Of a stretch of 64,000 bases of DNA, positions 19,220 to 49,852 are shown in pieces. Position 1 is the first letter of the stretch. Every line of letters starts with the position of its first letter. Source of the DNA: Candidatus Bathyarchaeota archaeon (lineage in GTDB: Archaea > Thermoproteota > Bathyarchaeia > 40CM-2-53-6); NCBI GenBank assembly GCA_963733055.1, contig CAVTBR010000001.1, positions 1-64,000 of the forward strand. Reading direction: 5' to 3'. The notes under the pieces were generated by a model that did no database searches, was not told the DNA's origin, and was given only the letters and a program-made list of their open reading frames with translations. The position numbers and the translations under genes are program-made.

Positions 19220-19317
19220 GAATCAACTTCACCTCCGAAGCCTGCGTGAAGGTCACCGAGGACGATGATGTCGATTATCGTCGATTCGAAAACGGAATAC
19301 TTGTCCATTTGCGGTTA

Positions 19318-19410
19318 GCACCATCCCTACGCCGGTATTACCCGGATCAGGTTCTCGGGGTCGACGGTTTCAACCGTCCTCTCAGCCGGGACACCCAGCT
19401 CCCCCGGTAC
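19318..19410 (-). ncRNA. TPP riboswitch aptamer
   Basis: Minus strand GTACCGGGGGAGC...GCTGAGAGG...GACCCCGAGAACCTGATCCGGGTAATACCGGCGTAGGGATGGTGC with the conserved CTGAGA, ACCTGAT, TAAT and GCGTAGG cores; lies upstream of thiT. Confidence 0.93.
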
Positions 19411-19473
19411 CTTCACCCAGCACGGTCACAATGGCCCGATTTAGCCTTCGCCCCTAACGCTCAAAACAGAGTC

Positions 19474-41835: not shown

Positions 41836-41952
41836 TGGTGAACCACTTAGATTAATTCGTCCTCTGAGACGGAAAAGTGCAATATATACCGTGTGTTGCC
41901 AAGGTCACGAGACAATACTTCGATTCCAGTCAGTCGAGAAGAGTTGAGGTGT

Positions 41953-42516
41953 ATGGAATCCCGAGATTCGATTGCTGAAGTGTCAAGCGAGGTAGTCGGT
42001 TGTACCAAATGCCGACTGTGTGAGACTCGACGAAAAGCAGTTCCGGGCGAAGGTCTGGAAAGATCAAGGGTCATATTCATAGGAGAAGCGCCGGGCGAAC
42101 AAGAGGATGCTCAAGGGCGACCGTTTGTCGGGGCCGCCGGAAAACTGTTGACCGAACTCCTAGTATCAGTTGGTTTGAGGCGGGAGGATGTTTACATTAC
42201 GAACATTGTCAAATGTAGGCCTCCGAACAATCGGCCTCCAAGAAAAGATGAATCATCCGCGTGTAGGCCTTACCTAGACCGGCAGATCAGTTTGATTGCT
42301 CCACGGATTATCTGCCCGATGGGGAACTCCGCAATCCACGCGTTAATGGATTCAGATAAGGGCGTGACGGATCTGCATGGGATGCCGCTTGAGATCGGGC
42401 AAGTTACCTTCTTTCCCATGTATCATCCAGCCGCTGCCCTCTACACCTTCCAGTTGAGGAAGGTGATGGAGGAGGATTTCAAACAGTTAAAGAGGTTATT
42501 GAATACTTACGGCTAA
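41953..42516 (+). CDS. udg: Family 4 uracil-DNA glycosylase; its last codons come from the integrated element
   Basis: CTKCRLC, GEAPG, PFVG.AG, TNIVKCRPP.NR, HPAA. Confidence 0.92.
   Translation: MESRDSIAEVSSEVVGCTKCRLCETRRKAVPGEGLERSRVIFIGEAPGEQEDAQGRPFVGAAGKLLTELLVSVGLRREDVYITNIVKCRPPNNRPPRKDESSACRPYLDRQISLIAPRIICPMGNSAIHALMDSDKGVTDLHGMPLEIGQVTFFPMYHPAAALYTFQLRKVMEEDFKQLKRLLNTYG
42472..42481 (+). repeat. Left attachment core GAGGATTTCA
   Basis: Identical to 48825-48834. Confidence 0.85.
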
Positions 42517-42604
42517 GGCCGCTTTAGCGGGTATTAGGGATTCGCTGAACTACATGGAAGATTAACCCAAAAAAAAGAGGGTGGGCCGTTAAGCCCGAAA
42601 CTCA

Positions 42605-42931
42605 TTACTTCTTAACGTATTTGGATGGGAACACGTACACGTCCGCACCTGACTTCCTAACCGCTACTGGGGGCTGTTTACCTTTAGGCGTAGTCTTACT
42701 TACCCTGCCTTTAATCGCTAGATACACGTTCGTTGCCCTATCAGCAGAGTTAAGACTAAGCTTAACCGTCTTAGTTTTGCCGTCGTTAATTAACGGGTCG
42801 TAGTCGCTTGAACGGTGGGCTTCAAGCACATTATCGGGCGGCGCAGGTAGAGTTTCAGTGTTAACTAAACCTTTAATCTGATACATCTGCGGCTTACCTT
42901 TATCGGAACCCGTATTCGCTGCCATAGCCAT
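42605..42931 (-). CDS. Element-encoded 108-aa hypothetical protein
   Basis: SD-like GGGGGGTGAA upstream; T-run downstream on the minus strand (near 42569-42576). Confidence 0.7.
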   Translation of the reverse strand: MAMAANTGSDKGKPQMYQIKGLVNTETLPAPPDNVLEAHRSSDYDPLINDGKTKTVKLSLNSADRATNVYLAIKGRVSKTTPKGKQPPVAVRKSGADVYVFPSKYVKK

Positions 42932-43058
42932 AAATCCAATTCACCCCCCGCACACTAAACATACCACCTCTACCCACACTAACATAATAAGCGTATTGAC
43001 TAAAGTCACTTTAAGTGAACCTTAACCTTGCCTCCTTAAACGTCTAGGCTTGCAGGCA

Positions 43059-43160
43059 TGTTAACGTGCTTACCCGTAAAACCGTGTATTTACCTCGTTA
43101 AACTCTGTATTCGTGTTTCATGCACCTTTGTTAACGGTACCGGTAAAACCCGTGTTTACC
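43059..43160. repeat. Imperfect 32-36 bp direct repeat, two copies
   Basis: TGTTAACG..TACC.GTAAAACC.GTGT.TTTACC at 43059-43094 and 43129-43160. Confidence 0.6.
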
Positions 43161-43420
43161 CGCTTATTTCAGCTAACGGAGGCCACTTTGACCCCCGATT
43201 ACCTTCAGCAGGCAAAGAGTTGGCTGCATACTTGCTTGTGTATGGTAATACTATAGGGTTACTGGTTGCTAAAGCAACTTGAGTTGCTATACGGCATAGT
43301 AGGCTGCTGTTAGGTTACCTGCATTTACGGTTACCCTCCCCCATTACTCTAATGTACTATAGTGTACGTGGGAGGTTTATTGTTGTGTTGCTGCTGTCTG
43401 CCCCGTGCTGCCGCCTCCAT

Positions 43421-43481
43421 GTGCCTCTTAGTGCCCTATCATAAGGTGCCTACGGGTGCCCTCATAGAGAAACAAGGTGCC
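43421..43481. repeat. Iteron-like GTGCC cluster
   Basis: GTGCC at 43421, 43431, 43446, 43456 and 43477; the first four form two pairs with a 25-bp period. Confidence 0.55.
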
Positions 43482-44013
43482 TTACTGCTATCAGATCGTA
43501 ATAGTCAAGTAACGTATAGTATGGTGCCTGCTGCTGGATGGTTTACGTTGGTGTGGCCTGCCCTCCACCCCACCTTAATCGTAGTCTTAGCCCGCCCACC
43601 AGCCCCCAGCGCCACCCGTAACGGATAACCACCCATACTATTTCACTTCACCCTAAACCCCTACTATTACACCTACTACAAATAAGGCTTGAGTAATAGC
43701 ATAGTTATATAATAAGAATAAGTTCTACTCCTTGCTATCCGTGCCTGTAACGTGATGTATGCTAACCTAAGGTTTCCTTACGGAATTTATGGGTTCCGAA
43801 CTGGGTTTAAGGGAAGATTAGGGTTTATTGGCCCAAAAAATTTTTTGGTTCTATAGGACCTTCCCCTTTTTAGGTGAATTATGGTTGATTATGGTTATTT
43901 ATGTCTGTTTTAGCTTAACATCATGTTTGTTTAATCATACGTGACGCCATGTAACGACAAAGGACGTGTATTGACGGGAAAAGGCTGTATGTGGGAGGTT
44001 CTTCCTCCCTAGT

Positions 44014-44481
44014 GTGGGGCGGACAAATATGCCTCGTCCAACTCCACGCCTCACTCACGGTCTAATTATTTTAGGAGAAAGATTTTGTTTGAACCGTAAA
44101 AATAGTAAGCCGAATTGCTTTAGTAGGATTCGACCTTCAATCGCTCAGCAGCTCCAAGCCGTCGATCTTCTCGTGCAATTGTTTGGTAGAGTCATCAGTT
44201 GTCCTAAGTGTGGTAAGGCCGGTCGAATCAGCGTTAACCGAACTAACCATTACGCTGTGTATCGTTGCCGTGTCGGGTTAACGCCCACCCATCCGAAGCT
44301 CTGTAGCCTCGGCGTTTTTGACGGACGATTTCTACTTAACGACCCTGAAGGGTCAGAAGCCGTTCAAAGGCTGTGGCAACTGTTCCGGAACGTTGTTAGG
44401 CCGCTGGCTTTGTCGGTTGCTGAACGATCGCTGCTTGTTAAGATAAGAACGTACTCGAATAAGAAAGAAGGTGATAATTAA
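44014..44481 (+). CDS. Element zinc-ribbon protein (start uncertain)
   Basis: CPKCGKAG...YRC......H...CSLG. Confidence 0.6.
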   Translation: MGRTNMPRPTPRLTHGLIILGERFCLNRKNSKPNCFSRIRPSIAQQLQAVDLLVQLFGRVISCPKCGKAGRISVNRTNHYAVYRCRVGLTPTHPKLCSLGVFDGRFLLNDPEGSEAVQRLWQLFRNVVRPLALSVAERSLLVKIRTYSNKKEGDN

Positions 44482-45012
44482 ATGACAAATGAAATTAAGA
44501 AAGATGATGGAGCCTCCGAGCACCCCCCAGCAGGGAGTTGGGCTGAAGCAGCATGGGCTTACCAAAGACACCAAGAGGCCACGCAGCCTAAACCAGCTAC
44601 TCCACCTTACGGTTTCACAACGGAACAAGCTTCAAGGTTCAACCTTTTGGAAAACCTGAAGACCGCCCGTGAGAACCTACAGCAGAAATTGGAGGCTGAA
44701 GCCCCAGACATCAGTCGATTAGATGATACTACGCCGCTTACAGGCACGCCTTACACCTTGCTAACCTTTCCGGATACCGACACGATGGATCACTGGGTTT
44801 CAAACGCCGCCCCTAATATTCGGGTTTGGAAGACAGGAAAAAGTTCCTACAACATCTCTGTCTGGTGCATCGTATCTTACAACAACACTTCGGCCGGTAA
44901 GTTGCCGAGCGTGCCCGACCCAGAGAAGGACTTACGTAATAGTGGCCGTGACCAACCAGAGAATCCTTCTAACAGCCAGTCCGGCGGAGCAACCGACAAC
45001 GACTTTCCTTAA
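44482..45012 (+). CDS. Element hypothetical protein, 176 aa
   Basis: SD GAAGGTGA upstream; T-rich tract downstream near 45031-45039. Confidence 0.7.
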   Translation: MTNEIKKDDGASEHPPAGSWAEAAWAYQRHQEATQPKPATPPYGFTTEQASRFNLLENLKTARENLQQKLEAEAPDISRLDDTTPLTGTPYTLLTFPDTDTMDHWVSNAAPNIRVWKTGKSSYNISVWCIVSYNNTSAGKLPSVPDPEKDLRNSGRDQPENPSNSQSGGATDNDFP

Positions 45013-45076
45013 CCTCCCCTAATTCCTCCGTTCTTTTTTGGAGGCATATTTCCGTTAAAATGAATGTGAGTATGAA

Positions 45077-45370
45077 ATGAGTATTCTTGATTTAATTCGA
45101 CGTGGCCTTCCTCATATCTCGATTACTTATGGTAACGCCCCTACAGCCACTGCGCCTACTACTCCGCCGACACCTATAGTAACTAAACCGCCATTGCCAG
45201 TTAAGCCCCCGAAAATCACACACTTCAAGGATGGAAGCTGTCGTTTTGATTTTCCGGATTCGGAAAGTCAGCAGGCTTGGTTATTGGCCCACAGTGGCCG
45301 TCCACTAATTTTCCAAATTGCACCTGAACGGACGACTACCGCTTTTGTCCTCAGCGGGGTAGACAGGTAG
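45077..45370 (+). CDS. Element hypothetical protein, 97 aa, Pro/Thr-rich linker
   Basis: ATG start, same strand as neighbours. Confidence 0.6.
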   Translation: MSILDLIRRGLPHISITYGNAPTATAPTTPPTPIVTKPPLPVKPPKITHFKDGSCRFDFPDSESQQAWLLAHSGRPLIFQIAPERTTTAFVLSGVDR

Positions 45371-45380
45371 GTAGTCTAGC

Positions 45381-45530
45381 ATGGAATCGAAAACGTATCG
45401 CTGTTCCCGCTGTGGCAGAACCGTAAGTGCCCCGAAGAACATTTACAGTTTCACGGACCAAGCCAACGTGAGGCGTAGGCTGCATAGAGCCGACTGTGGG
45501 TTGCTTAAAGCCGTAAAAAGGGGTGAGTGA
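45381..45530 (+). CDS. Element 49-aa zinc-finger protein
   Basis: Manual translation MESKTYRCSRCGRTVSAPKNIYSFTDQANVRRRLHRADCGLLKAVKRGE. Confidence 0.55.
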   Translation: MESKTYRCSRCGRTVSAPKNIYSFTDQANVRRRLHRADCGLLKAVKRGE

Positions 45531-45686
45531 AACTTAACAAATCATCTAACCGTATTTACCGACCTTCCATCTGCTCAAGCTATGGCTGGCGTTACCGGAA
45601 CCGTCGTGTCCGTGTGGAGTAACGCAACTATGAGTCAAATCCTCATTCTCTGGCACGATTAAGGCTGATTTCCGGGGTTCTTAACC

Positions 45687-46556
45687 TTGAGTGAACAAAT
45701 AGAGGAATACACTAAAGATTACGGCTACAATAGTAGCTTCCGCTCTGCTGAACCACCGAACAGGCTACCTGAACCCGTTAGGCAACTGATTCTACAAGGA
45801 GCATACGGACCCACTCCACCGGAACCTAACAACCAGAATGAAATTATTGGCCGTGAAGGCGTTCTTAGAACCCTACACAGCTTGAAGCATCAAGGCTTCA
45901 CCCGCCGCCTAGTTAATCAGGACCGAAACAACGATGAGAAAGCTCACCCCGACATCTTAGCTTACCATCCAGCATTAGGCTGGGTTCAAGCTGAAACCCA
46001 CTTCTACATTAAAACCCGCTACGTAGACGACCAGTTAAGCATCCGGAAGAATATTCGAAAAGCATGGTTCCAAAACTTACCTAAATTCGTAGTCATGATA
46101 TGGCAAACCCCCTACGCTTACTCAGCCCAACATAACCTACTCCTACACGGAATAGGCTTATGGAACGGCCTAAACGAACTAACCGGCCTAACCGACGAGG
46201 GGGTGTGTGTTGTACAAGGACAGTGTGAAGGTGTCTGTATTGATAGTAAACGGGGTCAGAGAGAGGGTTTGAGTGAAGGTAAACGTGCTGTGGAAGGTTA
46301 CTTACAGGGGGAAGGTCAGTGTAATGGGTACTGTAATAGCGGTTATAGTACTGATGTAAGTAACGACGACGTTTATGGTGGGGTTGGTGCCCCTCGCCGG
46401 AGGCTCCCTATTGCTGGTTTAGAATCATCTCATAAGCACTTCAACGGGGTAGGCCGTAACCGGTCGTACTGTGATGGCCTGCAGGGTTATTGTGAGCATG
46501 GTTACTGTAAAGGGTACTGCATGTGGGGGGCTTGTAACGTTAGGTGGGTTAACTGA
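45687..46556 (+). CDS. Element protein with a PD-(D/E)XK-like N-terminal domain and Gly/Tyr/Cys-repeat tail
   Basis: GREG..., HPDILAY....GWVQAETH; tail QCEG, QCNG, YCNS, YCDG, YCEHG, YCKG, YCMWG. Confidence 0.5.
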   Translation: MSEQIEEYTKDYGYNSSFRSAEPPNRLPEPVRQLILQGAYGPTPPEPNNQNEIIGREGVLRTLHSLKHQGFTRRLVNQDRNNDEKAHPDILAYHPALGWVQAETHFYIKTRYVDDQLSIRKNIRKAWFQNLPKFVVMIWQTPYAYSAQHNLLLHGIGLWNGLNELTGLTDEGVCVVQGQCEGVCIDSKRGQREGLSEGKRAVEGYLQGEGQCNGYCNSGYSTDVSNDDVYGGVGAPRRRLPIAGLESSHKHFNGVGRNRSYCDGLQGYCEHGYCKGYCMWGACNVRWVN

Positions 46557-46605
46557 TGTTGATGTTGTTCATGATTGGTCTGAACCGTTTATTTATTTCA
46601 TCATG

Positions 46606-46867
46606 GTCACGGCTTAGTGGTTGTTTCCAGAAATGGTTTTTTCCTTAAGCCTGACATGCCGGGTCGGTTGCTTCATCTCCTCCGATTCGGCGGCGGGTTG
46701 AGTTTCACTTCAGGGGCAACCCGTTCCTAGTTTCTTCCTTCCTTCCCAGTCACGGCTTGAGTAGTTGCTTCTTAAGCCGGACAAGTGCTGAGCCGGTTGG
46801 CTTTATCTCCTTTCGGCTCTGGCCGGGTTGTTTGCTTCCGACGTGTTCGTTGGAGCAACTTAACCCG
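46606..46867 (+). repeat. Tandem imperfect duplication (143-bp period), three hairpins per unit; candidate structured ncRNA
   Basis: Units start GTCACGGCTT at 46606 and 46749; stems are kept despite substitutions; G-U pairs fit the + strand. Confidence 0.65.
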
Positions 46868-46871
46868 CCTA

Positions 46872-48245
46872 CTATTTTATTGGTTTTAAGTGTTTGAGCG
46901 GTAGCGCTGAAGCTGAAGGAAGAGGCTTACTACTCCTCCGTTTCTTCTTGAGTGGTTTCGGTTTAGGTTGTGCTGCTGACGATTCCACGACTTCAGCGGC
47001 TACTCCTAATCTACTCAGGCGATTAATGAGTTTCTGCTGCTCCCAGCGCATGCGTTCGTTGTTAGGGTCGTCTGGTGTGGGGTCCTCGGCTATGGCTATT
47101 TGCACCATGTCTAATTGCTCCTTCAAATTCACAATAACTTCGTCTTTGAGAAGTTTGTTTTCTTCTTGGAAGCTGGTTAACTGCTGGGTCATAGCTTTGA
47201 CTTCGCCCTGTAGTGTGGGGTTCTCTGCGTCCACGTAAGCCCGCCACTTCATCCATTCTGCCTTAACCTGTTCTGGCTTGTGTAGTAGCTGTAGGTACAT
47301 GTTCTTGTCTACTACGTGACCGGTCATGAACTGTAGGTACACTTGGTTAATCTTAGCGTCTGTTAGTCCGTCCGTGACCATCAGGTCCCTGAAGAAATGT
47401 GGCCTAGTCGTTTCCTTTATGCCCGCTCGCTTACGGGCCATATGCCAAGGCTTAAGGTAGTGCCATCCCCGTATAGCTTCTTTACGGCCTTGCCCGCCAT
47501 GTACTCTAACCATCCATGGGGCAGGCTCATTAACGAATGGTGTTAACACTTTGGCCGGTATGAATGTGAAGTAGCCTTGTTCCTGACTCTTACGGAAGTT
47601 ATAGCTTAACATGATAGCTTCGTTAGGTTCTCTTGCCGCCTTTACCTGTTCTACTAGCTGAGGCCACATTTTGTTGATGAGTAGGGCTTCACGTCTGCCT
47701 AATCCACCGTACATCATAGCCGAGAATAGTTCACGGTATGGCGTCTTACAGGCCGATATAGTGGCTTTGGCTTGAGCTAGTGGCATGTAGGTAACTTTAG
47801 GTTCTATTGCTTGTTCGTCTGTGTGGTTCTCTACTATGTGGAATGTTTCAGGCGGCAGAGCCGCCCTATTATGTTTATAGAACGCCTTAATGGCGGCATA
47901 TAATAGCTCCTTACGCTTACGGCTTAACTCCGCTATGAGTGTGGTTTTATCATGTCTTTTACCGCTGGGATATAGCCTTGAGGTCTTAACTATCCCTGAT
48001 AAGATGAACTGCTGGGCTTGGTCTAGTGCCTTGTAACCGTCTGGGTCTACTTCCCTGTTCTGTCTCTCTGTAAGTAGTAGGTCAGGTGATTTACCTATGC
48101 CTGTACAATATTGGTATATGGCGTAGCTGTAAGAGTCTCGGCTAGACTCGGCCCCTAGCCTACTAAGGAACCTCTGCATACTAGCGTTAGCTTCAATGAA
48201 CGGTTTACCTATCTCGCCTTCGTGGAATAACCCTGAACGGCTCAA
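46872..48245 (-). CDS. Tyrosine recombinase/integrase
   Basis: SAM-like N-terminus (IKAFYKHN), YGGLGRREAL, FRK, PHFFR (HxxR), MTGH, catalytic Y in KNMY; coiled-coil and basic tail. Confidence 0.85.
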   Translation of the reverse strand: MSRSGLFHEGEIGKPFIEANASMQRFLSRLGAESSRDSYSYAIYQYCTGIGKSPDLLLTERQNREVDPDGYKALDQAQQFILSGIVKTSRLYPSGKRHDKTTLIAELSRKRKELLYAAIKAFYKHNRAALPPETFHIVENHTDEQAIEPKVTYMPLAQAKATISACKTPYRELFSAMMYGGLGRREALLINKMWPQLVEQVKAAREPNEAIMLSYNFRKSQEQGYFTFIPAKVLTPFVNEPAPWMVRVHGGQGRKEAIRGWHYLKPWHMARKRAGIKETTRPHFFRDLMVTDGLTDAKINQVYLQFMTGHVVDKNMYLQLLHKPEQVKAEWMKWRAYVDAENPTLQGEVKAMTQQLTSFQEENKLLKDEVIVNLKEQLDMVQIAIAEDPTPDDPNNERMRWEQQKLINRLSRLGVAAEVVESSAAQPKPKPLKKKRRSSKPLPSASALPLKHLKPIK

Positions 48246-48769
48246 AGCCCTAACCTCATTAGTGGGATGGGGGTTGGCCCCTTGTCGGCTGAAGCCGCTT
48301 TAGCGGGGCCGTGTCTATCCTGTATATTTCTCCTAAGCTGAAATATGCAGGGTAGGCACAGCCATTCATCTGTCTCGCTGTTATGGTAGAGGGTTCTGAA
48401 GAGGCCGCACTTCTCACATGATGTCGGCTTATGGCCTGTGCTTATGCTAGTCAGGGCCATGGGCGGCGTACTCTGATATGTCGTGGTACTCTGCCAGCAT
48501 CTTAGACCGGTGGGCCTTGCCCTTACAATGGCATGTCTGCGGGTTGAAGCTAACCAAAGGTTAGCTTTAGCTAACCCTTTACAGCGGACATTATGGGCGT
48601 GCTGACAGGGGCCGCTCTTACACTCTCGGCGGTTCATGTAGTCGGCTAGTTCTTGAGGTAGCTCATCGGTACTAGGCTCCGGGGACACAACAACCGGAGC
48701 CAAGAATATCGGGCCGCTTTGAAACCGTAAGGTTCCATAGCGGTCTATCGTCGGTAGTTCTCGGTTCAA
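48242..48769 (-). CDS. Element Cys-rich zinc-binding protein overlapping the integrase start
   Basis: CKSGPC.H.H...C and CEKC...CLPC; TTGA stop/start overlap. Confidence 0.55.
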   Translation of the reverse strand: MNRELPTIDRYGTLRFQSGPIFLAPVVVSPEPSTDELPQELADYMNRRECKSGPCQHAHNVRCKGLAKANLWLASTRRHAIVRARPTGLRCWQSTTTYQSTPPMALTSISTGHKPTSCEKCGLFRTLYHNSETDEWLCLPCIFQLRRNIQDRHGPAKAASADKGPTPIPLMRLGL

Positions 48770-48824
48770 GGTTTTTGCCTCAAACCTACCCTACTTCATT
48801 CAGGAATAAAAAAGTATGGATAAA

Positions 48825-48872
48825 GAGGATTTCAGGAAACTTCGCGGGCTTCTAGATTCCATATCCAGTTGA
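48825..48872 (+). other. Right attachment core plus the displaced original udg 3' end
   Basis: Reads EDFRKLRGLLDSISS-stop in frame with the core and ends 2 bp before the convergent AKR gene. Confidence 0.85.
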
Positions 48873-48874
48873 GA

Positions 48875-49852
48875 TCAGTCTTCTTCGAAGGTTGGTTTGT
48901 TCCCGAGAACGCCATCGATTCTTTCCATAACTTCTTTGCTGAGGTTCTCAATTATTGCCTCGGCCTTCATGTTCTCAGTTACCTGTTCTGAACGTGTTGC
49001 GCCGGTGATGACGGTGCTTACGTTCGGGTTCTTGAGGCACCACGCCAAAGCTAGCTGAGCCAACGTGCAATTCAGAGATTTCGCTATCGGTTCCAATTTC
49101 TTGACTCTTTCAAGGTTCTGTGGCGTGAGGATGTATTCTTTGAGCCATTCGTAGCCTTGGAGTGAAGCTCGTGTGCCGTGCGGTATCCCACTGTTGTATT
49201 TGCCGGTAAGAAGCCCCGATGCTAGGGGGCTCCAGATTGTTGTTCCCAACCCAATTTCCCGGTATAGGGGTAAGTATTCTTTCTCGACCCTGTCTCGGTG
49301 GAGCATGTTGTATTGTGGTTGTTCCATTTGTGGTGGCGTAAGGTGATATTCACGTGCAATTGCGTGGGCGCGCATTATGTCGGCGGCATTCCATTCCGAT
49401 GTCCCCCAGTACAATACCAAACCCTGGTGAATTAGATCGTCCATGGCGCGGACCGTTTCTTCAATAGGGGTCGTGGGGTCGGGGCGATGGCAGAAGAAGA
49501 GGTCAAGATAGTCAAGCTGTAACCGTTTCAGGGAGCGTCGGCATGCTTCGTAAATGTGTTTGCGCGATAAACCTCGGTCGTTGGGCCCTTCGCCGCCCCA
49601 GAAAACTTTGCTCGACACCACAAAGCTCTCTCGTGGCCATCCGGTTTTCTTCAAAACATTGCCCATGACCGTTTCTGCGTTCCCATTCGCGTATGCTTCG
49701 GCGTTATCAAAGAAGTTTACCCCCGCCTCATAGGCCGCGGACATACACTTCAAAGCCACCTCTTCACCAACCTGGCCTCCATACGTAACCCACGCGCCGA
49801 GGGATAATTCACTGAGTTTCAATCCCGAGCTGCCGAGACGACGATAGTTCAT
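48875..49852 (-). CDS. Aldo/keto reductase (Kv-beta-like)
   Basis: [38 protein letters not shown]. Confidence 0.93.

Follow-up and report, generated by a model that had tools for sequence, protein, structure and literature searches.

The locus

The stretch of DNA analysed here (the window; 64,000 nucleotides, positions 1 to 64,000 of contig CAVTBR010000001.1 from a Candidatus Bathyarchaeota archaeon) carries an integrated element with a body of about 6.35 kb (42482–48824), whose limits were obtained from flank matches and from empty sites in relatives. Within this element two open reading frames (ORFs) face each other: a 289-amino acid ORF on the + strand (45687–46556), here called P0002, and the gene for a probable divergent tyrosine recombinase, P0001, on the − strand (46872–48245). 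The intergenic gap which separates these convergent ORFs (46557–46871, 315 bp) contains an array of six hairpins, which is the subject of this report.

Architecture of the hairpin array

The array is a diverged tandem duplication spanning positions 46587–46875. An earlier note on this DNA had described two units with a period of 143 bp and three stems each, separated by a pyrimidine spacer. The spacing of the repeat family is indeed 143 bp, each unit folds by itself on the + strand into three hairpins, and all six quoted stems as well as the spacer are found in the sequence (hairpins H1 to H6, 46606–46869). The two units, 46587–46729 and 46730–46875, showed a mean column identity of 76% in the alignment, with insertions and deletions confined to loops. 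The GC content of the array is 0.49–0.55, and the region is G+T-rich on the + strand. Contig pieces from three DNA sequencing runs (one study) were identical to the window over the array, with zero variants; none of them spans the whole array.

Unit 1 begins with a T-rich leader (46587–46605, +), which contains TTTATTTATTT at 46588–46598 and is homologous, according to repeat family and alignment, to the pyrimidine-rich spacer between units 1 and 2 (46726–46748, +). It is followed by H1 (46606–46655, +), for which folding gave the stem GTCA-C-GGCTTAG / CTTAAGCC-TGAC and a loop in which GGTTGTTTCC, a small inner hairpin and a run of six T (46637–46642) are found. H2 (46658–46691, +) has, from folds and the table of pairs, a stem of 10 bp, including two G-U pairs, and the loop UUGCUUCAUCUCCU. 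In H3 (46692–46725, +; folds and consensus scan) CGGGTTG pairs with CAACCCG, and a pyrimidine tract comes next, with a terminator-like site at 46712–46728. The hairpins of unit 2 are copies of those of unit 1 in the same order. H4 (46749–46782, +; alignment and fold) corresponds to H1, with a loop shorter by 17 nt and an intact stem. H5 (46790–46819, +; table of pairs, alignment and fold) corresponds to H2; its stem is altered, with one compensatory change from U-A to C-G, and its loop (UUGGCUUUAUCUCCUU) is nearly the same, so that in the alignment of the units H2 and H5 have near-identical loops on diverged stems. H6 (46821–46869, +; fold) corresponds to H3 with an extended inner stem, the loop of H3 having been exchanged for a longer insert which forms an extra stem. 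Only 2 nt lie between the 3' edge of H6 and the recombinase stop codon; farther on, TTTT is present at 46875 and 46884.

In the repeat family, the 5' arm and the start of the loop of H2 and H6 were 88% identical, which suggests that the hairpins are paralogues of one module. The array may thus have grown by duplication, first of a hairpin of about 35–45 nt and later of the 143-bp unit of three hairpins. A short motif, GGTTG.{0,4}[CT]TT[CT], had seven matches when the + strand was scanned over the whole window, five of them inside the array; H4, as the sixth hairpin, has the variant AGTTG instead of GGTTG. The previous observation of a GTTG..(C/T)TT(C/T)-like motif in every hairpin is in agreement with this result.

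Folding, strand bias and comparison of the copies

Folding as RNA of the region 46600–46875 yielded −115.2 kcal/mol on the + strand (z −5.61) and −91.8 kcal/mol on the − strand (z −3.84); the comparisons were made with dinucleotide shuffles, and none of 200 was as good on either strand, so that folding of both strands, which had been proposed as a check, came out in favour of structure. With DNA parameters the same region gave z −5.16 on + and −4.21 on −. The units, when folded alone on the + strand, reached −49.3 kcal/mol (z −4.04) and −58.8 kcal/mol (z −6.02), respectively. When the 64 kb were scanned with windows of 120 nt, five windows from the array fell between ranks 8 and 14 for the + strand, with −3.0 to −3.4 standard deviations.

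The bias towards the + strand was evident from the G-U pairs, as had been stated in the earlier note: the minimum free energy structure of the whole stretch contained 11 of them on + versus 1 on −, and the units folded alone contained 8 and 4 on + versus 0 and 0 on −. Of 27 model pairs, 27 and 25 can form in the two units on the + strand, compared to 24 and 22 on the − strand. The energy gap between the strands amounted to −23.4 kcal/mol, versus −9.8 ± 4.6 kcal/mol for shuffled sequences folded on both strands (z −2.97, 0 of 150); about half of the strand bias therefore exceeds what composition yields.

Comparison of unit 1 with unit 2 over 28 model pairs showed one two-sided change, four one-sided changes by way of G-U and two pairs broken in unit 2. 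Between the copies 25 of 27 pairs were kept, whereas a neutral simulation with the observed numbers of transitions and transversions kept 21.6 ± 1.6 (P = 0.033, or 0.050 given nine changes in stems). Pairing would thus appear to be marginally maintained between the copies. The former claim that pairing is preserved while the sequence changes is thus borne out in part only.

Search for relatives of the array

The array occurs as a single copy in its own genome, with no second one. A blastn search of 58 other genomes of the family produced one 30-nt match at chance level (E 0.0045), and blastn-short and nhmmer searches against 32 loci gave chance-level rows only. That covariance models have some reach here is shown by R1, which was made from the sequence of unit 1 only and picked up unit 2 with 24.9 bits. 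The model of both units (R2) gave no match in the order (104 other genomes, searched with stricter filters) or in 31 loci with integrase homologues, a set which excludes the contigs encoding P0004 and P0017. It also found nothing in eight viral-contig loci, nor in three further loci (L090, L092 and L093, described below). Eight matches from a pattern scan of viral contigs were judged to be due to chance, none of them being confirmed by R2.

Relatives of the recombinase were not obtained in scans with the single protein; with an alignment as query 18 metagenome loci and one genome locus were obtained, none of them in viral contigs. The genes of these homologues mostly abut a convergent ORF. At one locus (L031) a structure on the antisense strand (z −3.29, 30 shuffles) was dismissed, since a fold of 371 nt gave z 0.13; the gap at another (L026) folded with z −0.15. 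In genome G041, which carries a different insertion at the same site (L090, see below), the recombinase gene abuts the next ORF, and the most structured window of that element falls within a coding ORF. No relatives of P0002 were found in the order. Its N-terminal domain had two weak matches only among 401 genomes of the class, both in one genome (G051:C4:673845-674048 and G051:C3:64851-65099; L092 and L093); neither is followed by a hairpin array, and the 252-bp gap after one of them folded with z +0.97.

A search of Rfam 15, which had been suggested as a means to identify a known family, returned no match overlapping 46557–46871 up to E 10; two sub-threshold rows at chance level lie outside the array. 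ARAGORN detected no transfer RNA or transfer-messenger RNA genes in the window. Structural conservation in related elements, whose lack the earlier note had listed among the signs against its own proposal, was not found in the 104 genomes and 31 loci, the region being absent from them rather than present and unfolded. The array is an orphan, a single locus in one metagenome-assembled genome.

A putative 3'-end module on the + strand

We tentatively favour, with somewhat less than even confidence, the interpretation of the array as a cis-acting 3'-end module of the + strand, which would terminate, insulate or stabilise the rightward transcripts of the element. Structure, strand bias, duplication and the position in a mobile element between convergent genes are established; transcription of the + strand across the array, termination and stabilisation are inferences. 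A rightward transcript would first include a T-rich tract and next the six hairpins, which are GC-rich and spaced by U-rich or pyrimidine-rich runs. In this way transcription could be stopped short of the recombinase gene, to which it would otherwise run antisense, the array acting as a terminator or insulator, and a tail rich in hairpins would be left at the 3' end, which might protect the upstream messenger RNA (mRNA) or be released as a 3'-derived small RNA. H6, the last and strongest hairpin, borders on the stop codon of the convergent gene and would be followed in the transcript by UUUU..UUUU.

Several features are consistent with this proposal. T-runs of at least four in 46500–46950 occur on the + strand, at 46637, 46875 and 46884, and none occur on the − strand. 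Between 45500 and 48900 nine terminator-like sites were counted, versus 3.7 ± 2.1 in shuffles, the consensus being bacterial; five of the six on the + strand are within the array, and none on the − strand are there (again as matches to the bacterial consensus only). The sequence pattern of an intrinsic terminator, a GC-containing stem and then a T-rich tail, is present on the + strand, likewise as consensus matches only. According to a study of Haloferax volcanii, a single hairpin brought about 59% termination (PMC7237163); hairpins are thus able to terminate transcription in archaea, though less well than T-stretches (PMC7237163).

Five points weigh against this interpretation. Transcripts could already end at the T-rich leader or at the T6 run in the loop of H1, so that the greater part of the array would not be made. 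Archaeal termination chiefly needs U-tracts, not hairpins. A comparable structure is lacking from the 276 nt downstream of the recombinase gene in all 10 homologue loci that were folded, so that these relatives manage without a module of this kind. The test for selection is marginal, with two sequences only and an alignment which was fitted to the structure. Finally, the near-identical loops of H2 and H5 and the GGTTG..YTTY motif common to the six hairpins are not explained by a terminator.

Gene control in the integrated elements of archaea is poorly understood, and the Bathyarchaeia are without a cultured system of host and element. Should the array function as an RNA module, it would represent a 3'-end or insulator device of unusual complexity, or else a new kind of regulatory RNA, beside a recombinase gene. 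Its practical value will be limited until relatives or transcripts turn up.

Other explanations

The features which a terminator leaves unexplained would fit an independent small RNA, encoded by the element and acting in trans, either as a scaffold or sponge for a protein by way of GGUUG..YUUY, or as a pairing RNA with loops resembling anti-Shine-Dalgarno sequences. Such a function, which we regard as unlikely but worth consideration, would agree with the structure and bias of the + strand, with the presence of one motif at the same place in six hairpins (five of the seven matches in the window being here), and with the greater conservation of loops than of stems in H2 and H5; the loop of H2, AUCUCCUCC, is also one base off the 3' end of the 16S rRNA of this genome, AUCACCUCC. 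On the other hand, the sole TATA-like box, a candidate located by eye at 46588–46595, would start the RNA inside H1. Sites complementary to the loops were not enriched in the genome (44 matches versus 42 for a reversed control), and neither an Rfam match nor a relative in the 104 genomes was available to point to such an RNA. The proposal of the earlier note, a non-coding RNA or a folded single-stranded DNA signal, is accordingly supported in part: a structure on + that is far better than its shuffles, with a bias to that strand, fits a single-stranded role, but the suggested functions as guide, scaffold or antitoxin received no support from Rfam or from an enrichment of loop targets.

The array could also be without function, a decaying remnant of a duplicated sequence rich in palindromes. 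The single locus with no relatives in any search would be expected in this case, the maintenance of pairing is merely marginal (P 0.03–0.05), and the G+T skew on the + strand alone yields about 10 kcal/mol of the strand gap. We consider this improbable, as six stems survive at a divergence of 17–24% between the copies, insertions and deletions avoid the stems, and the strand gap is beyond all 150 shuffles.

A signal in duplex DNA would consist of six co-oriented, iteron-like sites (GGTTG..YTTY) or of palindromes prone to form cruciforms, for control of replication, partition or recombination, perhaps bound by the PD-(D/E)xK-like neighbour or by the recombinase. The strong local enrichment of the motif, the near equality of the strands when folded with DNA parameters (z −5.16 and −4.21) and the gene for a protein of PD-(D/E)xK-like fold next to the array could be explained in this manner. 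Imperfections of the stems should then be neutral with respect to the strand, yet 11 G-T pairs were seen on + and 1 on −; furthermore, the region is not AT-rich (GC 0.49–0.55), and no replication protein was recognised among the proteins of the element. This kind of signal appears quite improbable to us.

Since just 2 nt separate the array from the recombinase stop codon, it might on the − strand serve the recombinase mRNA as a structured 3' untranslated region, for post-transcriptional control of the recombinase in the manner of sib/tI and int in phage lambda. The − strand, too, is better than its shuffles (z −3.84), and it has no T-run of at least four in 46500–46950 and none of at least five in 45601–46600, so that transcripts of the recombinase gene would probably continue across the array. 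The + strand, however, is favoured by its G-U pairs, by the energy gap and by the pairs that can form (24 and 22 of 27 on −, against 27 and 25 on +), and homologues of the recombinase are without such a tail, which makes this explanation very doubtful. A folded signal of single-stranded DNA on the + strand, such as a single-strand origin of rolling-circle replication or hairpins used as sites by the recombinase, like attC of integrons and attP of CTX phage, is hardly credible: the + strand is favoured (z −5.16 in the DNA fold) and a tyrosine recombinase gene adjoins the array, but none of the element's proteins was recognised as HUH or Rep, the real attachment (att) core is elsewhere (42472–42481 and 48825–48834), there are no cassettes between the hairpins, and the strands differ little under DNA parameters.

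Comparison with known systems

In its position, the array resembles clusters of hairpins in terminators or 3' untranslated regions. With archaeal 3'-end signals, namely U-tracts and the hairpin terminators of Haloferax volcanii, as described in the study cited above (PMC7237163), it has in common the hairpins on the sense strand with T-rich runs, downstream of a gene and between convergent genes, as well as several successive candidate stop points. It differs by its six hairpins in two duplicated units, its common loop motif and its conserved loops, which make it far more elaborate, and termination here is putative.

The sib/tI region of phage lambda is a single RNase III hairpin on the sense strand of int, from which it is parted by integration. 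In both cases a structured RNA region, putative for the array, immediately follows the integrase gene of a mobile element and could couple read-through to expression of the integrase; in our case, however, it is the antisense strand of the recombinase gene that is favoured, and the att core is found at the opposite end of that gene. The small RNAs CsrB and RsmZ sequester proteins by means of multiple hairpins with a GGA motif. A row of hairpins, each with the same short motif in or beside its loop, is likewise found in the array, whereas its motif is GGUUG..YUUY, its host is an archaeon, it has no Rfam match, and a binding protein and a promoter would be hypothetical.

Integron attC sites are imperfect palindromes beside a tyrosine recombinase gene with a fold biased to one strand, which is also true of the array; its hairpins, in contrast, are adjacent and without cassettes, its recombinase gene is convergent instead of divergent, and the 10-bp core is elsewhere. 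An attC array was rejected for these hairpins, as no ORF of at least 50 amino acids is situated between them and, by eye, the sole GTTRRRY (46697) is upstream of the sole RYYYAAC (46857), which is the wrong order. Mimicry of CRISPR repeats was rejected as well, as the genome has no CRISPR-like array and no Cas1, and one repeat from 12 Cas1 neighbourhoods of the genus has just words of 7–8 nt in common with the element. Type III antitoxins like ToxI consist of tandem repeats of about 36 nt upstream of the gene for an endoribonuclease toxin; the array has two copies at a period of 143 bp, downstream of a neighbour with a PD-(D/E)xK-like fold, and such repeats were also discarded. For hammerhead, H/ACA and C/D-box RNAs the core boxes are lacking (by eye).

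The element as a whole resembles cryptic integrated elements of archaea, as they appear in a survey (PMC6563490), in being small, in consisting of a recombinase and orphan genes with no viral or plasmid hallmark, and in a 3'-distal insertion which replaces the end of a gene. The portion of that survey at hand makes no mention of such a hairpin array, and the host here belongs to the Bathyarchaeia, not to the Thaumarchaeota; among 68 thaumarchaeal elements, 14 use 3'-distal targets in protein genes, according to the survey (PMC6563490).

The integrated element and its insertion site

The region 42482–48824 is a site-specific insertion into the 3' end of a gene for a family-4 uracil-DNA glycosylase (41893–42516), which forms the left flank; the gene of the right flank encodes an aldo-keto reductase. 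In a comparison within the genus, the left flank was present in 22 of 22 other genomes, and matches to the right flank started only at about 48797–48963 in 20 of the 22 (at 48825 in 13). In two genomes (G043 and G050) the flanks abut, representing the empty site. Alignment with these empty sites revealed an att core of 10 bp, GAGGATTTCA, at both junctions: the left one (42472–42481) is within the last codons of the glycosylase gene, and the right one (48825–48834) is followed by the displaced original 3' end of that gene. Empty sites and cores together demonstrate that about 6.35 kb entered the glycosylase gene within its final codons. The last 11–12 codons (42472–42516) have thereby been swapped for a similar tail supplied by the element, KQLKRLLNTYG versus the displaced RKLRGLLDSISS (48825–48875). 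Archaeal integrated elements can target 3'-distal parts of protein-coding genes, as is stated in the survey mentioned above (PMC6563490).

Genome G041 contains another insertion of about 13.5 kb between glycosylase and reductase genes at the same site (G041:C2:114875-128345, L090), with a recombinase of 53% identity next to the reductase gene; this site is thus reused by this recombinase family. Near the left end, inside the element, a direct repeat of 22 nt (42510–42531, +; repeat family and alignment) is a candidate arm-type site for the recombinase. Its right copy is at 48286–48307; the copies are identical in 20 of 22 positions, and each has a CGGC..GCCG mini-hairpin. In a circular form of the element these repeats would flank the att core, as candidate sites of arm type.

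The rightward ORFs of the element are all on the + strand and start at 44014, 44482, 45077, 45381 and 45687, the last being P0002. For the other ORFs of the element there were no significant matches in Pfam, NCBIfam or PHROG. A region of about 1.1 kb (42932–44013) is without a convincing ORF and includes the window of lowest GC content in the element (0.43, 43500–43999); it might be the location of an origin or of promoters.

Genes adjoining the array

The ORF upstream of the array, P0002 (289 amino acids), consists of a PD-(D/E)xK-like N-terminal domain and a tail of Cys/Gly-rich repeats, as judged from homologues, AlphaFold and Foldseek. In 12 homologues of the N-terminal domain, P88-D89, E103 and K125 were invariant, with H or K two residues after E103. 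The AlphaFold model had a pLDDT of 80.3. Foldseek matches were weak and mainly to the restriction-endonuclease fold, the best being 1y88 (E 2.6e-3), none reaching E 0.001; further top matches were Can2, MspJI, NucS and Hjc, and also the RNA polymerase subunit Rpb5. The designation of P0002 as nuclease-like is reasonable but not proven. Its Cys/Gly-rich C-terminal repeats (residues 204–261, window 46290–46556) matched 55 stretches of P0019, a protein of 5048 amino acids (E 9.8e-73); to judge by this match, the C-terminal repeat is a module in common with that giant protein.

P0001 (457 amino acids) is convergent with this ORF. In a family of 13 sequences R171 was invariant and H283, R286, H310 and Y317 were nearly so, which fits the pattern R..HxxR..H..Y. 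P0001 itself had no Pfam match; five of the 13 members weakly matched Phage_integrase (PF00589), with a best E of 0.0014, and the profile of the family against IntI4 (2a3v) gave an E of 0.95, which is not significant. The closest homologue is P0004, with 68% identity. The protein was accepted as a divergent tyrosine recombinase because of the family residues, the weak Phage_integrase matches and the proven insertion. The labels nuclease-like and integrase, which the earlier note had attached to the two genes, thus apply only in a loose sense, being backed by the fold motif, the family residues and the insertion, and weakened by Foldseek and Pfam matches of low strength.

A second structured region and other observations

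A second structured region with bias towards the + strand was found in the window scan and by folding at 48238–48405. It covers the 5' end of the recombinase gene in antisense, includes the 22-nt repeat in its right copy and overlaps an orphan ORF of 175 amino acids, Zn-ribbon-like, on the − strand (48242–48769). Nowhere in the 64 kb was the + strand more structured than at 48241–48400, which reached −5.4 standard deviations in the scan. Positions 48230–48420 folded with z −5.26 on + versus −1.65 on −, with a strand gap of z −3.55 (0 of 150), and 48238–48405 had no match in Rfam.

The recombinase gene is therefore bracketed by two structures which are biased to the + strand. On this basis, one may speculate that two structured RNAs of the + strand bracket the gene in antisense, the array at its 3' end and the 170-nt structure across its 5' end and one copy of the arm-like repeat, and form an RNA-based switch for integration and excision, the array being a scaffold or decoy with multiple sites for a protein of the element or host, or for ribosomes, by way of its GGUUG..YUUY hairpins and loops resembling anti-Shine-Dalgarno sequences. 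There is small likelihood of this in our opinion; if true, it would be a new class of regulatory RNA of mobile elements in Bathyarchaeia. If the array does work as a module of RNA, it would provide, together with the second region, a testable handle on how a minimal element of 6 kb shields the expression of its recombinase from convergent transcription.

Elsewhere in the window, a thiamine pyrophosphate (TPP) riboswitch (RF00059) was identified at 19306–19415 on the − strand, with 79.8 bits versus a gathering score of 54.3; it was the sole Rfam match in the whole window at the gathering threshold.

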